Source of the DNA: a virus
Taxonomy: Duplodnaviria; Caudoviricetes
Reading direction: 5' to 3' (one strand)
Virus record (IMG/VR): IMGVR_UViG_3300011337_000463
Coordinates: 1-33,020 of that record
Length of the DNA: 33,020 nucleotides
Shown: in pieces, positions 3,660 through 13,579 of the stretch
Layout: each line of letters starts with the position of its first letter
Numbering within the stretch: position 1 is the first letter of the stretch
Notes under the pieces: generated by a model
Databases searched by the model: none
The model's input: only the letters and a program-made list of their open reading frames with translations
What the model was told of the DNA's origin: nothing
Program-made: the position numbers and the translations under genes

Positions 3660-3699
3660 AGATAACGTGGGTGTTATGGCTGTTAGCCAATAGTTATGG
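3660..3699. repeat. Short or degenerate attC/attI-like site at the left end of the cassette array
   Basis: AGATAAC-N26-GTTATGG with a small internal TGGCT/AGCCA hairpin. Confidence 0.4.
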
Positions 3700-3705
3700 T
3701 TAATG

Positions 3706-4392
3706 CTACGTTAACGTATCAAAAATTGAAACTTGATTAACATTAGCCTTTTTTTCAATTCCTAAAACAGTTTCAAAAATTGTTCTTCCTGCTTCGTAAT
3801 CGACAAGGTTACAAGCTATTTTATCTTTTCTTTGAGTTCCTTTATAGCTTGATAAATCTATTTCGTGAAATATTTCATTTGGTTTACTTCCTGATTCAAT
3901 AAAACCTTTAGGTTGTGGTCTTTCATTTAAACTTGTTGGTAAATTAAAGTTAGTCCAATATAAATGCCTACCTCTTTTTTTAGCTGGTATCAATGGTTCG
4001 TAAAAAGGAATTACATTTTCAACAACATATTTACCTCTAAAATAATTATCTAAAAAAATAATTTCTTCATAAAGTTTCATATCTGGGAAAACTGGATTGT
4101 AATTTTCACGTTCACTATTTGCTTGTCCAAATCTTATTCTGCTATGTGTAGGGCAAGGCGGAGAACTCCAAATAAAATCAAATTTTTTAAAATTCTCTAA
4201 TAAATATTGATGCGCATCGCAAACAATTACAATATCATTTGGAAATCGCTCTTTGTACATTCTTGCAAGTTCTTCATCATATTCAATAGCGGTTACTTGA
4301 ATTTCAATTCCTTTTTCTTTTACAACGTCATCCCATTTATAACGATTACCGCCTAAACAAGCGTAAAGGTTTAATATTTTATACTTTTGCAT
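3706..4392 (-). CDS. DNA (cytosine-5) methyltransferase, short phage type
   Basis: Motif I LNLYACLGG, motif IV SPPC, motif VI VENV. Confidence 0.88.
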   Translation of the reverse strand: MQKYKILNLYACLGGNRYKWDDVVKEKGIEIQVTAIEYDEELARMYKERFPNDIVIVCDAHQYLLENFKKFDFIWSSPPCPTHSRIRFGQANSERENYNPVFPDMKLYEEIIFLDNYFRGKYVVENVIPFYEPLIPAKKRGRHLYWTNFNLPTSLNERPQPKGFIESGSKPNEIFHEIDLSSYKGTQRKDKIACNLVDYEAGRTIFETVLGIEKKANVNQVSIFDTLT

Positions 4393-4561
4393 CTGATAAT
4401 TTTTTTAATATTTGTAAAGCTTCATCATAGGTTTGTTTGTTCATTGTAATTGACCTTACATAATCAATAAAACAAAATATTTCATCGTATAAATCCGCAC
4501 TAACCATAACACCAGCTTTGCAAGATTGCTTTGTCTGTGATTTTTTGGAAACTTTATTCAT
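4379..4561 (-). CDS. Hypothetical 60-aa protein starting inside the attC-like hairpin
   Basis: ATG in the hairpin loop after an A/T-rich leader; overlaps the start of the C5 MTase. Confidence 0.55.
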   Translation of the reverse strand: MNKVSKKSQTKQSCKAGVMVSADLYDEIFCFIDYVRSITMNKQTYDEALQILKKLSDAKV

Positions 4562-4635
4562 AATTTTAACTGTGTTTTTTATTTGTTAATTTTAGGTTTT
4601 GAGGTCGCAACCTCGCAAAGCTGTAAACGTTATAA
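4504..4635 (+). repeat. attC-like hairpin 1
   Basis: CCATAAC-AC-arm 4513-4529, arm 4607-4623-TAAAC-GTTATAA; arms 15/17 complementary. Confidence 0.8.
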
Positions 4636-4673
4636 GCAAGCTGGCAGACGTGCTTCGATTGAACATTTCGTTT

Positions 4674-5307
4674 CAAAAATTTTAAATAAAAAAGCCCACG
4701 CTTTCTAAAAAAGAGAAGGTTTTGATATTTGATTATTAATTCTGCTAATTGCTTTGTCATAATATGTTTTGTTTAGTTCTGAACCTATAAAGTTTCTATT
4801 CTCTTTGGCACAAGCCACAGCCGTAGTTCCACTTCCACTAAAAGGGTCAAATATTGTATCTCCTTCTTTTGTGTATTCTAAAATCAATTTTCTAATTAAG
4901 TTAATTGGCTTTTGGCTTGGGTGTCCTTCAAATGTATCTTTTGCAAATGATGCAGCCACCGTGCTATTAATCAAATAGTAGTTATAGCATTTATAAGCAT
5001 TGCCACCGTTCCTTTCAAATATTCGTTCATACATACTACCAACGCCACATTTTTTATCCCAAATATGTATTGATGTATAATTCAAAGGGAAGTCAACTTT
5101 TGCACTCCAAAAGATTAATTGCTTACATTCAATATCCTTCATAAAATCAATTATACCTTCAAAATATTTGTATTCATCAGCCAAATAATCGGGATATGGT
5201 GGGTCGGTTAATATCAAATCCACTTTACCTAATCTCTTAATTGTATCTAAACAATTCTCGTTATATAATTCTATTCTTCCCACGCTTTTTTTTATTTAAA
5301 ATTTTTG
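4674..5307. repeat. 20-bp inverted repeat plus 10-bp direct repeat bracketing the MTase ORF
   Basis: Perfect IR 4674-4693/5288-5307; DR CCCACGCTTT at 4695-4704 and 5279-5288. Confidence 0.9.
4705..5283 (-). CDS. DNA methyltransferase, beta-class N6-adenine/N4-cytosine
   Basis: TDPPY precedes HPSQKP and DPFSGSGTT; GTG start. Confidence 0.92.
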   Translation of the reverse strand: MGRIELYNENCLDTIKRLGKVDLILTDPPYPDYLADEYKYFEGIIDFMKDIECKQLIFWSAKVDFPLNYTSIHIWDKKCGVGSMYERIFERNGGNAYKCYNYYLINSTVAASFAKDTFEGHPSQKPINLIRKLILEYTKEGDTIFDPFSGSGTTAVACAKENRNFIGSELNKTYYDKAISRINNQISKPSLF

Positions 5308-5351
5308 TTCAGTTCTTCGATTTAACATTTGTGCTAACTAATCCAGCCAGC

Positions 5352-5446
5352 TTATAACACGTGCTATAAGCAAGTTTGCCATCAACATTTTCGGTAACTT
5401 GAACATTTCTGCAAGGCAAACCTGCTAATAGCACCATACGTTATAA
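5352..5446 (+). repeat. attC-like hairpin 2
   Basis: TTATAAC-AC-arm 5361-5380, arm 5415-5434-CATAC-GTTATAA; arms 18/20 complementary. Confidence 0.8.
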
Positions 5447-5644
5447 ATTCATCTCACTATGAAATATAAAAAATCCATCATCTTTAAAATCTATTTTATT
5501 ATTGAATTTATTACCTACTATTGTAGATACGCTCATAGGAGTACAGCCTACTATTTCAGATATTATTCTTAATCTTTTGTCGTTGCCGTTGAAGTATAAT
5601 CTTAATACTTCCTGTTTCTTTTTTTCGCTTAAACATCTACTCAT
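5441..5644 (-). CDS. Small helix-turn-helix protein
   Basis: LRIISEIVGCTPMSVSTIV HTH-like pattern. Confidence 0.65.
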   Translation of the reverse strand: MSRCLSEKKKQEVLRLYFNGNDKRLRIISEIVGCTPMSVSTIVGNKFNNKIDFKDDGFFIFHSEMNL

Positions 5645-9579: not shown

Positions 9580-9819
9580 TTATTTATATTCTTTATCAAA
9601 AATGTAATAAAATTTGTTTTGCATAGTTTGAAAGAAGTTGCTTTGTCTAACTGTTTTATTTTCATAAAACTTACTTAAAACTGGAAGCAAAAGATTCTGT
9701 AATTCTCTTGCTTTATCTTGTATTTCTTTTGTCTGTTTAGTAGGCGTCATTACTGGTTCATCAATTTCTTGAACCAGTAAATCAACCAATACTAACATTT
9801 TTGCTAATTTCTTTTGCAT
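9580..9819 (-). CDS. Hypothetical protein
   Basis: 79-aa ORF with TAATG overlap. Confidence 0.7.
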   Translation of the reverse strand: MQKKLAKMLVLVDLLVQEIDEPVMTPTKQTKEIQDKARELQNLLLPVLSKFYENKTVRQSNFFQTMQNKFYYIFDKEYK

Positions 9820-11999
9820 TAGAATAATGTTAATGTTGCGTTTTTTTCATCTACAAAAGCTTTATGATTATTTGAATTTAAAGAAAAATAGCTTTTTTTT
9901 AATTCTATTGATATTGATTTTCTATTCATTTTAATAGCAGAGCAACCCTCTGAACCAATACCTCCAAATGGACTAAAAACAGTTTCGCCCTCGTTTGAAT
10001 ATAAATGTAATATTCTTTCAATAGTATCTAATTGTAATGGGCATATATGTTTTTCATCATTGCCATCACGCCCAGACCGATATTGTAATGTTCTTGAATA
10101 ATCAATATCATACCAAACTGGAGAAGCATATTTCTGCCATAAATCAACAGGTAAATAATCAAATTTTGAACTATCTTTATCTTGATGAGTTATCGGAGTT
10201 TTATTTTCGCCTTCATTTCTAAAAAATAAAACATAATCAGGAATTCCAACTCTTGACATTACACTATCTTTTTTAATAGTTTTATGAAGTAATCCTAATG
10301 CTTTTGTTCTTTGCATTTCTGTTACTGGATTCTTCCAAATTGTAACTTTTGAATGATAAATAAATCCCTCCTCTTGAAACCAATTAATAAGCATTCCGCT
10401 AAAATCACGCAATCCAATATATCCTTCTTTTCCTTTTTGTATTGGCAAGTCCATACAATGAATAGCACAAATACGCCCGCTTTTTAAGACTCTTTTTAAT
10501 TGCGGTACTAAATATTTAAAATGTTCTTGAAATTGATTATAGTTGCTTACATTTCCCATATCCTCTTCTTTATCACTATAAACATATAATTCTGCAAATG
10601 GTGGAGAAAAAACAATAACATCAGCACAATTATCAGGAAGCTTTGCTGTTTCTTGTACACAATCTCCATTTATTAAATGGTAGTTTTCTGTTTTAATTTC
10701 TTTGTTCATAATTTTTACTTTTGATTTTGCTGTTTTATAATTTGTTTCTGCTGAATATAATGCCATTTCTCTGATTCTTTCAAAGTGTTGTTTTTCTTTA
10801 TCTAAAATAGTAGTTCTTACATTAGTTTGGCTTTCAGGAATAAGAATATGTACTTTTACTTTTTTCTTTTGTCCAAAGCGATAGCATCGTCTAACGGCTT
10901 GATAAAATGCTTCAAACTTAAAATCATAACTCATAAAAATCATATCGCTGCATTGTTGATAGTTCATTCCAAATGATGCAATAGATGTTTTTGTAATTAA
11001 ATTTTTAAATTCATTATCGGAAAAGCCATTTAAATATTTTGCTTTATATTCAGGAGCATCAGACCCTTGAACATTAATAGAATTATCTAATAACTTTGAA
11101 AGTGTATCAGTTTCGCTATTTTTTAATCCCCAAATAATACATTGATTATCTATATTATTTACAAGTTCTAAAGTTTTAGTAATCCTTAAATCAAAACTTC
11201 TATTCAAGTCTTTATGTAATTCAGTAGCAGAAACAGCTACATCGCAAAATAAAGACTGGCTTAAATTTTCAACTGGTATAATATGTTCAATATATTCTAT
11301 TTCAGGAAGAGTATAACCATCGCCATTAAATCCTAAAGTAATTGGATTATCAATAGCAATACTCCAGCTTGATACATACTTCCAAAATGCATCCTTTGCG
11401 TGCTTTCTTAATCGCCATTTTGAAGTTTCTCCTCCATCATGAACAAAGAACATAGCCAACATTTCTAAATAACTCATTCCTCCTAAAAATTCAGAATGTT
11501 GCCCTAATTCCATATGGTCATTTGGTGATGGTGTTGCAGTACAACAAAGCTTATAAGGAGTTGATTTAAACAATTCTAAAATTAAAGATGAAGTTTTGCC
11601 ATCTCTACCTTTTAAAATTGAACTTTCATCAAGTACAACTCCTGAATAAATAGAAACATCAATATTTTTTAACTGCTCGTAATTTATAATATCAAAATGT
11701 TTATTTTCAATATTAAATTTTTTAGCTTCTTTTTTTGTTTGTTCTATAATTGCCAAAGGAGCAAGTATTAATACTTTCTTTTTTGTTTTAATTGAAACTT
11801 GTTTAGACCATTCTAATTGACAAAATGTTTTACCTAATCCACAATCAAAAAATAAAGCAAATTTACCTTTAAATAAAGCTGTTTTTACTCCAAACTTTTG
11901 AAAGTCTTTTAATAATGGATTTAATTTATCTTCAGAAATATTAAACCCGCTTTCAATAAATGTTTTTCTTTTAGTTTCTAAAAAATTTGTATAATTCAT
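9819..11999 (-). CDS. SNF2-like helicase fused to a beta-class DNA methyltransferase
   Basis: GLGKT, LDESS, TATP, QAVRRCYRFGQ helicase motifs, then FSPPF, HICP and FSPFGGIGS MTase motifs. Confidence 0.88.
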   Translation of the reverse strand: MNYTNFLETKRKTFIESGFNISEDKLNPLLKDFQKFGVKTALFKGKFALFFDCGLGKTFCQLEWSKQVSIKTKKKVLILAPLAIIEQTKKEAKKFNIENKHFDIINYEQLKNIDVSIYSGVVLDESSILKGRDGKTSSLILELFKSTPYKLCCTATPSPNDHMELGQHSEFLGGMSYLEMLAMFFVHDGGETSKWRLRKHAKDAFWKYVSSWSIAIDNPITLGFNGDGYTLPEIEYIEHIIPVENLSQSLFCDVAVSATELHKDLNRSFDLRITKTLELVNNIDNQCIIWGLKNSETDTLSKLLDNSINVQGSDAPEYKAKYLNGFSDNEFKNLITKTSIASFGMNYQQCSDMIFMSYDFKFEAFYQAVRRCYRFGQKKKVKVHILIPESQTNVRTTILDKEKQHFERIREMALYSAETNYKTAKSKVKIMNKEIKTENYHLINGDCVQETAKLPDNCADVIVFSPPFAELYVYSDKEEDMGNVSNYNQFQEHFKYLVPQLKRVLKSGRICAIHCMDLPIQKGKEGYIGLRDFSGMLINWFQEEGFIYHSKVTIWKNPVTEMQRTKALGLLHKTIKKDSVMSRVGIPDYVLFFRNEGENKTPITHQDKDSSKFDYLPVDLWQKYASPVWYDIDYSRTLQYRSGRDGNDEKHICPLQLDTIERILHLYSNEGETVFSPFGGIGSEGCSAIKMNRKSISIELKKSYFSLNSNNHKAFVDEKNATLTLF

Positions 12000-12363: not shown

Positions 12364-12981
12364 CTAATATTTAATTGTTTTTATAAATTCTCTAACTTCT
12401 AATACTTTGTTTTGCAACTGCTCAATAATTTCTGCGTTGTATTCTATATTAAAATGCTTAATTCTATATTTAGCATCCATATCATCATAGTTGTGTTTTT
12501 CTTCATACGTCAACTCATCTGGAGTGTTTAACAATACATAAACTAAACAAGCTTTTGTGCATCCCGTTAAGTGCATATAAACCTGTAATTGATAGTAATA
12601 ATCTTTAGTTGGTATATCGTTATCAAACAAAGGAAATGTATAACAATCCCAGCTGCATTTAGTATCGTAAACAACACCATCTACAATTAAATCTGGAGTT
12701 CCACAAAAGTAATTATCTTCAAAAAATTGCTCATTCTTAATAGCAAACGACAAATCTAATAATTCAATAGTTTTATCAATCGCTTCATCCTCTAACCATA
12801 AACCTTTAGATAAATATTTGTTATTGATATTTTTTCTAAATCCGTAGATTTGTTCTTTCATCCAATCGTAAACATAACTTTTAGTTGTTTCCGATAGTGT
12901 TTCAGACTTTGCTCTTGGAGCAGTCATAAGTTTACCAGCAGCAGATGCCCTAATTTTAAATAAGTTGTTTTGCGTTTTCAT
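12364..12981 (-). CDS. YqaJ/lambda-exonuclease-like recombination nuclease
   Basis: IRAS, GLWLEDEA, GTPD...DTKC, YYYQLQVYM. Confidence 0.82.
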   Translation of the reverse strand: MKTQNNLFKIRASAAGKLMTAPRAKSETLSETTKSYVYDWMKEQIYGFRKNINNKYLSKGLWLEDEAIDKTIELLDLSFAIKNEQFFEDNYFCGTPDLIVDGVVYDTKCSWDCYTFPLFDNDIPTKDYYYQLQVYMHLTGCTKACLVYVLLNTPDELTYEEKHNYDDMDAKYRIKHFNIEYNAEIIEQLQNKVLEVREFIKTIKY

Positions 12982-13579
12982 CTGATAAATTGTATTTAGT
13001 TCTTATTTGTTCAATTGTATAATTTCCTGTTGCAACAGCTTGTTTAACCTTATACCAGTTTGGATGCTCTGGAGTTAGTTCAATCAGCGTTAAATCTAAT
13101 TCATAACTTATTAAATCTTTACGGTTTAAATCTGCACCGAATAATTTCCCAAACATATCACAAGCATCTTTTATAGCTATTGTTTTAGCAACAGGAAAAG
13201 CCATTGATAACGCTCCATTATTTATGTTTGCTAAATCCGATGGCGATGTTCCTTTTGCAGTTTGTAATTGACAAGCACCAATACCATCATGAAACAACCA
13301 AGTATTATCAATCGGATGTAAATAGTGAACTCTAACTGTTACCCATACGCCATTAAATGATTGACCTTGTCCAGTAATTTCAATCTTATAAGTTTTAAAG
13401 ATAGTTTTTAATAAATATTCTATTCGTTCAATAGGTAAGTATTTATAACCTCTGATAAACGTATGCTCTTTTACCCATTCTTGTTTTGGTGGCTGGTTCA
13501 TTAAAGTAACAAATACGTCTTGTTTTTGTGTTGATAATTTATCAGAATAAATATCTACAATTTTAGGTAAGTTTTTCAT
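12956..13579 (-). CDS. Single-strand annealing protein (Rad52/Sak-like)
   Basis: YLPIERIE...AKTIAIKDACDMFG pattern; next to the exonuclease. Confidence 0.62.
   Translation of the reverse strand: MKNLPKIVDIYSDKLSTQKQDVFVTLMNQPPKQEWVKEHTFIRGYKYLPIERIEYLLKTIFKTYKIEITGQGQSFNGVWVTVRVHYLHPIDNTWLFHDGIGACQLQTAKGTSPSDLANINNGALSMAFPVAKTIAIKDACDMFGKLFGADLNRKDLISYELDLTLIELTPEHPNWYKVKQAVATGNYTIEQIRTKYNLSDENAKQLI

Follow-up and report, generated by a model that had tools for sequence, protein, structure and literature searches.

Clusters of attC cassettes without an integrase (CALINs) occur in virulent phages, including the Polaribacter phage P12002L (Qi et al. 2023, PMC9892861). One site of this phage, P12002L_attC2, is recombined by IntI1 and, going by the available text of that paper, is the only Bacteroidota phage site for which this has been shown in print. 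In the PeSL cassettes of T4-type phages, conserved intergenic linkers mark the insertion, deletion and replacement of accessory genes, and the accessible part of the description identifies no dedicated recombinase (Arbiol et al. 2010, PMC2839356). The ends of IS200/IS605 elements carry subterminal palindromes that are bound, cleavage taking place at a distance (PMC3201880). The de novo formation of attC cassettes has been described as largely unknown (PMC5371416).

The stretch of DNA analysed here, hereafter the window, is a whole virus record of 33 kb (33,020 nucleotides) with a completeness rating of 100%. One methyltransferase in the window occupies a real swappable gene slot in Bacteroidota-type phages, because the same matching arms bracket many unrelated DNA-modifying genes in related phages. 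The slot is widespread in phages of this type. It is apparently undescribed in print, judged from a literature search outside which most subscription papers and supplements fell. By analogy, the slot appears to work like PeSL-type linker shuffling nested in phage CALINs, with ends recalling those of IS200/IS605. Genes without regulatory DNA of their own kind of flank, of unrelated folds, are fitted to the codon into a single conserved frame of non-coding DNA, the switch points can be mapped, and cultured isolates (P12024S and P12002L) are among the carriers.

The resemblance to CALINs lies in the attC-like hairpins that flank methyltransferase genes in a Flavobacteriaceae phage without integrase (PMC9892861). 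The available text of that description covers attC sites only, and makes no mention of inner arms, G-rich cores, a start codon supplied by the flanking shell, a GNA mini-hairpin or reassortment of cargos. With PeSL cassettes the slot family shares the replacement of genes between conserved intergenic linkers. PeSLs, as described in the accessible text, are direct-repeat promoter-terminator units, whereas the ends of the slot are complementary across the gene and are not local GC-rich terminators; the slot is furthermore nested in attC-like sites and provides the start codon, and in many cases also the last codons, of the gene. As in IS200/IS605 and REP/TnpA(REP) elements, a small single-strand hairpin stands at a fixed short distance from the junction and target duplication is not obligatory. 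In contrast to IS200/IS605, as far as the available descriptions go, the slot carriers are without Y1 transposase, the hairpin is optional and found at either or both ends, the predicted donor joint is absent from the assemblies searched, and the long arms of the slot, which lie outside the unit, pair with each other.

The methyltransferase unit of the window

The gene is located on the minus strand at 4705-5283 and encodes an orphan DNA methyltransferase of the N6/N4 type (192 aa; PF01555, E 1.8e-25; PHROG 67) with the C-terminus PSLF. An earlier note, made from the sequence of the window, had called this methyltransferase and placed it inside nested repeats, all of whose coordinates were correct when re-checked. 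AT-rich arms at 4674-4693, on the 3' side of the gene, and 5288-5307, on its 5' side, are perfectly complementary over 20 bp; no perfect inverted repeat of the window that fits within 700 nt is longer, and 100 out of 100 Markov-simulated windows gave 12-17 bp. Between the arms lie two G-rich cores on the minus strand. The 3' core (4695-4701) reads GCGTGGG on the gene strand and lacks the GNA mini-hairpin that usually precedes it, and the 5' core (5279-5285) is the donor of the start codon. Both cores belong to a 10-mer that is present at 4695-4704 and 5279-5288 and absent elsewhere in the window. Its upstream copy contains the GTG start, with an in-frame stop four codons upstream. Two details required correction, as the upstream 10-mer shares one base (5288) with the arm and the conserved part of this direct repeat is 7 bp, not 10. 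Outside the arms, a 16-bp direct-repeat motif is found at 4653-4668 (3' copy) and 5315-5330 (5' copy) with one mismatch between the copies, and both copies are conserved in relatives.

The repeats make up the body of an attC-like cassette in what resembles a Flavobacterium phage. The unit extends further than first described, and also includes an outer inverted repeat (4629-4644 and 5343-5358) and two attC-like sites (4504-4635 and 5352-5446). The 3'-side copy of the outer repeat contains the R' box of site 1 and is predicted to pair with the 5'-side copy, which contains the R'' box of site 2. This repeat covaries between loci, exemplified by L153-L155 compared with L146. Site 1 has R''/L'' and L'/R' boxes that pair in the fold of the minus strand; its long loop holds the ATG of a 60-aa ORF (4379-4561, minus strand) that reads through its box. 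Similar ORF starts within the loop of an attC-like site are seen in the phages tooticki6-1, 2A and 6H. Site 2 likewise folds with paired boxes, at -18.9 kcal/mol on the minus strand versus -16.3 on the plus strand. Both sites thus have paired boxes on the minus strand and fold better on the gene strand. Together with the asymmetry of the spacers, this suggests that the genes lie on what we take to be the bottom strand of the attC-like sites.

When positions 4490-5460 of the gene strand are folded, a long stem with the gene as its loop is predicted, in which the first 14 arm pairs have probabilities of 0.93-0.99, a prediction that spans 600 nt. The predicted fold pairs the R boxes (4629-4637 and 5350-5358) across the cassette and not within their own attC-like sites. 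Two folds therefore compete, and such a competition could gate excision.

The window encodes terminase, portal, tape-measure and exonuclease genes; the gene adjoining the exonuclease (12959-13579) has no Pfam match. INPHARED was queried with the window and with the flanks of loci L291 and L172. The attC-like site 1, left of the unit, was 80-83% identical to intergenic sites of the Flavobacterium phages 2A, 6H, 1H and tooticki6-1 (13 of 16 INPHARED records), and the shell, i.e. the conserved flanks of the slot, matched phage P12024S only. Because of the similarity of site 1 to these phages, the host is probably a member of the Flavobacteriaceae. An IMG/VR record, L104, is identical to the window locus over 1101 bp. 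Just downstream of attC-like site 1 is a gene for a C5-type methyltransferase (3706-4392, PF00145), and a short palindromic stretch with TAAC/GTTA boxes is located at about 3660-3715. A helicase-methyltransferase fusion is encoded at 9819-11999.

Reassortment of genes and shells

A metagenome scan that used the 3'-side flank of the window shell as the query returned 15 matches, all of which (15/15) represent this shell with cargo sequence beside the core; both ends were recovered in 10 of them. The cargos in these matches are 713-993 bp long and belong to three other families, a Dam-like D12 methyltransferase and two further N4/N6 families. The result that would have spoken against the earlier note, flanks always tied to this one gene, was thus not seen. 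With loci added later the shell family comprises 19 units carrying N4/N6 and Dam-like methyltransferases and Mom. These fall into 7 cargo clusters by script at 55% identity, one of which (L226) is probably mis-clustered, leaving six.

The converse expectation, that the ORF occurs in other shells, also held. Fourteen protein relatives of the window cargo were found in IMG/VR, and relatives sit in other flanks. One of them (L105, 84% amino acid identity) lies in a short cassette without arms, where homology stops at the stop codon. Another (L106, 64%) is flanked by arms of opposite polarity and occupies the loop of such a site of the attC-like kind. Over the whole family, 97 units represent 64 cargo clusters and 48 shell types, and cargo cluster 0 is found in five shell types. 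Reassortment hence goes both ways, one shell being found with many cargos and one cargo in many shells. DNA-modification enzymes account for 71 of 96 cargos (59 methyltransferases from five Pfam families and 12 Mom), the remainder being 3 other enzymes and 22 cargos without family.

The borders of the exchanged piece can be read from comparisons between units. The match between the Dam-like cargo in L350 and L158/L160 extends across hairpin, spacer and core and is lost at the base that follows; at the 5' end of this cargo the similarity begins at the ATG. Homology between different cargos in the window's shell ends 1-3 nt past the 5' core. The first 7 nt past the 5' core go with the cargo, being common to 26% of 46 same-cargo pairs compared with 3% of 146 same-shell pairs. 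The bases past the 3' core go with the shell (43% of same-cargo and 86% of same-shell pairs). What is exchanged is therefore a piece that reaches from about the start codon as far as the 3' core.

The triplet in the 5' core is in frame with the cargo in 8 of the 9 shell-family members that were translated, and in three Mom alleles it is ATG, TTG and GTG, respectively. The start codon accordingly comes from the shell; in the Dam-like cargo it is the cargo's own ATG. Across the family, the start lies in the core in 27 of 96 units and shortly after it in 34.

The 10-bp direct repeat had been read as a duplication made on insertion, and this part of the proposal failed. No more than 14 of 97 units have the same 7-mer in the 5' and 3' cores. 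Almost all of these belong to the window's shell family, in which the cores of L252, L292 and L293 differ. Measured through the core, the repeat is about as long as in mismatched controls (mean 4.1 vs 3.9 nt); it reaches at least 8 nt in 14% of units vs 11% of controls, and its modal length is 2-3 nt (61 of 97). The 10 bp of the window are the tail of this distribution, made up of seven shared core bases and three A, and not a required duplication. A transposon or MITE with target-site duplication was likewise rejected, as identical cores are this infrequent and no terminal inverted repeats travel with the cargo. The possibility that the linker after the 5' core is a remnant of the 3' arm was also dismissed (mean shared prefix 0.72 vs 0.88 in controls).

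Arms, mini-hairpins and possible routes of exchange

In relatives, the 3' site has a form absent from the window, with a 7-bp stem, a GAA or GCA loop, four bases and then the G-rich core. Two scans seeded by this site, and not by cargo, yielded 45 and 90 loci. Loci L182, L218 and L240 were judged to be chance matches and dropped from later counts, and are included in the following count of 118 sites. Full pairing at the three stem positions left free by the search pattern was found in 107 of 118 distinct sites, compared with a mean of 23 and a maximum of 37 after shuffling. Compensatory changes further inside the stem are seen at sites that the pattern does not cover. A hairpin is present at 10 of 71 core sites, 6 with GNA or GNNA loops, compared with 119 of 3000 controls, 8 with such loops. 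In L310 a different stem surrounds a GCGAAGC loop. According to the available text of PMC13037366, the GCGAAGC hairpin is far more stable in DNA than in RNA and occurs at single-strand origins and the N4 promoter. The DNA parameter set of ViennaRNA has no triloop table and cannot compare loop strands. A 3' mini-hairpin was present in 20 of 25 units of a whole-record scan, the other 5 being without it like the window. It is found at both ends of the cargo in L272, L289, L305 and L313, at the 5' end only in others, and at neither end in the window.

A matching upstream arm and core was found for 85 of the 104 sites with enough upstream DNA, compared with 183 of 1031 mismatched-partner controls; 19 of the 104 have no matching arm. 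The arms of the 97 units pair across 400-1300 nt. In the window's shell family, arm variants are concordant on both sides in 17 of 19 members, also within one cargo family, against a mean of 7.7 and a maximum of 15 on shuffling, where the rows are related and the figure is not a probability. The arms differ among the 48 shell types and stay with the shell when the cargo changes. None of the 13 mismatches in the arms is a G-T pair, which argues mildly against RNA-type evolution. A choice of strand from G-T versus A-C mismatches was rejected since neither kind is present.

By a rough pattern, 59 of 96 units lie between attC-like sites (TAAC box) and 19 within their loops (GTTR box). Cultured phages show the same arm-and-core layout, at gp38, gp53 and gp54 of P12002L and gp51 of the Nonlabens phage P12024S. 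Pattern searches added few loci. The outer repeat with core gave 103 matches in IMG/VR, 102 of them GC-rich chance matches and one a copy of the window locus; the arm with core gave 7, one of them real, longer A-runs escaping the pattern; and the right flank gave 18, two of them real. A GTDB scan gave 5 matches, of which one was real (L161, G002:C28). The slot is complete on this contig of 2.1 kb, which was assigned to a Saccharibacteria bin and is probably mis-binned stray phage DNA.

Some loci depart from the common layout. L185 and L199 are chimeric units with unmatched arms, and in L147 the 16-bp repeat motif is the point at which the 3' half of one shell passes into another shell type. 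An internal deletion has left L170 (2075-2020) with no more than the final 50 nt of a Dam-like cargo between its arms. One shell type (L244/L235 compared with L146/L155) has the arm sequences of the window's family with their order swapped around the gene.

The earlier note regarded the locus as an empty shell with a gene-capture site. Exchangeable cargo in common flanks and a start codon supplied by the shell bear this out in part; the duplication and the empty hairpin do not. The predicted arm-core-arm hairpin was found in 0 of the 15 metagenome matches, in no IMG/VR match for the window's arm type, in none of 92 loci, and in 0 of the 25 units that 26 carrier phage records (1.08 Mb) contained in a whole-record scan. 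The latter scan required arms of at least 12 nt and hence missed L291 and some known units (3 matches in the reversed-sequence control vs 25). L291 is a cargo-free shell of another form, in which the 5' core is followed directly by one mini-hairpin and the 3' core, and the flanks resemble those of the filled unit L310. It lies 35 nt from the start of its contig and its outer stem is broken. Since mini-hairpins occur at both ends of some cargos, a deletion between copies would give exactly this form, and L291 is probably a deletion remnant, or possibly a mis-assembly, and less probably a precursor.

A search for an enzyme gave no common candidate. The complete genome of the window (rated 100%) has no PF00589 match and no tyrosine recombinase, and without IntI the locus is therefore not a complete integron; nor was a Y1 transposase matched among its 32 proteins. 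Tyrosine recombinases (PF00589) were found in 9 of 50 and 1 of 5 carrier records, 7 of the 9 being 280-295 aa long, a size exemplified by L181. Membership in IS200/IS605 was rejected, as the associated Y1 HUH transposase (PF01797) was found in only 1 of 50 carrier records, as a 68-aa frame, and in 0 of 5. When 1019 ORFs from 166 loci were scanned for motifs, two tyrosine recombinases emerged, and neither an HUH nor a reverse-transcriptase motif was present. Pfam searches with 76 representatives revealed ERF, Rad52 and YqaJ families in carrier loci and no mobility enzyme common to the carriers. Since there is no recombinase in the genome and no mobility enzyme common to the carriers, whatever acts works in trans or is general machinery.

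Group IIC/IIB-attC introns have reportedly been proposed to take part in cassette formation, and the slot resembles them in its association with attC sites and bare ORFs. A group II attC intron was rejected, given the lack of reverse-transcriptase motifs in these ORFs and of any Rfam family of note in the region, where three matches with E values of 2-4.2 were all that was returned. The link to canonical integron cassettes drawn in the earlier note was not borne out either, as neither IntI nor reverse transcriptase accompanies the slot and the 3' site is rare in host genomes, with matches at one mismatch in 3 of 401 genomes of the phylum Bacteroidota (control 2). On present evidence, the slot does not explain the genesis of canonical integron cassettes.

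We tentatively favour, with somewhat less than even confidence, an exchange in which genes are swapped loop for loop by short-homology recombination at the G-rich cores on a predicted folded single strand, with the enzyme provided in trans. The complementary AT-rich arms would pair in vivo on the gene strand and make the gene a loop, the arm-paired unit would stay a compact substrate of the outer attC-like system, and the GNA mini-hairpin would be read as single-stranded DNA. The catalyst would be the general annealing or strand-exchange machinery of the phage, or the tyrosine recombinase of the array, and not a dedicated transposase. The benefit would be a quick change of methylation pattern against host restriction; orphan phage methyltransferases are described as anti-restriction in the accessible text of PMC9892861. 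Even with general recombination, the slot would be a specific route for phages to change their DNA-modification repertoire against host restriction. Against loop swapping, the stretch of 1-3 nt that different cargos have in common past the 5' core is short for recombination of the annealing type, the gene beside the window's exonuclease has no Pfam match, so that an annealing protein is only putative in the window, and there are both chimeras with unmatched arms and sites without a matching arm. The concordance of the arms could in addition stem from template-switch correction without any function, and cargo-free L291 and the four two-hairpin cargos fit insertion at a hairpin as well as deletion between hairpins. 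Insertion is the core of the idea in the earlier note, with a crossover of 2-3 nt now replacing the 10-bp duplication. A dedicated site-specific or HUH-type single-strand enzyme would recognise mini-hairpin and core, excise a circle of ORF, hairpin and core, and insert it at the core of an empty shell. The fixed layout of hairpin, 4 nt and core, like that of IS200/IS605 ends, speaks for such capture, as do the sharp 3' switch point, the modal repeat of 2-3 nt through the core and the match between the flanks of L291 and L310. We nevertheless consider it unlikely, as the arm-core-arm hairpin it predicts was not found in any of the sets searched, deletion or mis-assembly would account for L291 equally well, the window and 5 of 25 units have no mini-hairpin and others have it at the 5' end only, the 5' switch point is not fixed, and neither a Y1 transposase nor another enzyme is common to the carriers.

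The arms might instead act in RNA, the 3' arm pairing with the 5' arm after full transcription, hiding the start region and limiting potentially toxic enzymes, while swapping would be ordinary homologous recombination in shared flanks or genes. The 5' arm does abut the start codon or leader in many units, RNA parameters likewise predict arm pairing, and the cargo is strongly biased to DNA modification. The arms contain no mismatches of the G-U type (0/13), however, the GNA triloops sit on perfect 7-bp stems and the units are embedded in attC-like DNA sites; the same two arms around unrelated genes are left unexplained, and we regard control at the RNA level as improbable. A function of its own may also be lacking altogether, if the arms are by-products of replication template-switching in AT-rich cassette ends, whose match is maintained by quasi-palindrome correction, and the shell does no more than link genes, as a conserved element, for generic recombination, as has been proposed for PeSL linkers, which would act by homologous recombination (PMC2839356, available text). 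Perfect Watson-Crick arms with homopolymer slips, and deletions and chimeras such as L170, L147 and L185, are consistent with this origin. It is nonetheless quite improbable in view of the same layout across 48 shell types with unrelated arm sequences, a mini-hairpin whose structure is kept while its sequence changes, and a start-codon triplet conserved as ATG, GTG or TTG.

A bolder and rather doubtful reading is that Bacteroidota phages have a second, hitherto undescribed single-strand gene-capture system nested in attC-like arrays. The arms would zip the ends of the gene, a trans enzyme would read the GNA mini-hairpin and cut at the G-rich core, and bare ORFs would be grafted onto the start codon of the shell and often its stop and a clamp-binding-like tail. 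If true, this second system would be a tractable natural model for the entry of promoterless ORFs into attC cassettes. The slot is testable with oligonucleotides and existing phage-host pairs.

Uncommon cargos and C-terminal codons

The last codons and the stop of the cargo are often encoded by the left arm of the mini-hairpin. Cargo ORFs whose stop falls within the mini-hairpin or close to it number 57; the C-terminus is LF or MF in 39 of them and Q-x-x-L/M-F in 29 (loci L106-L305; window 4705-4722). Because these endings resemble the beta-clamp motif QL(S/D)LF (PMC9690074, available text), the 3' site may at the same time tag modification enzymes for binding to the clamp.

Among the remaining cargos are a Thg1-like guanylyltransferase, a radical SAM protein and PAPS-reductase-domain proteins (L236, L289 and L217). 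Judged by the company they keep, these are candidates for unusual phage DNA modifications. Slots with two genes were observed in L174, L176, L189, L194, L197, L205 and L209. The last gene in these encodes 57-64 aa without Pfam match and reads into the hairpin; its product is possibly a small DNA-binding regulator.
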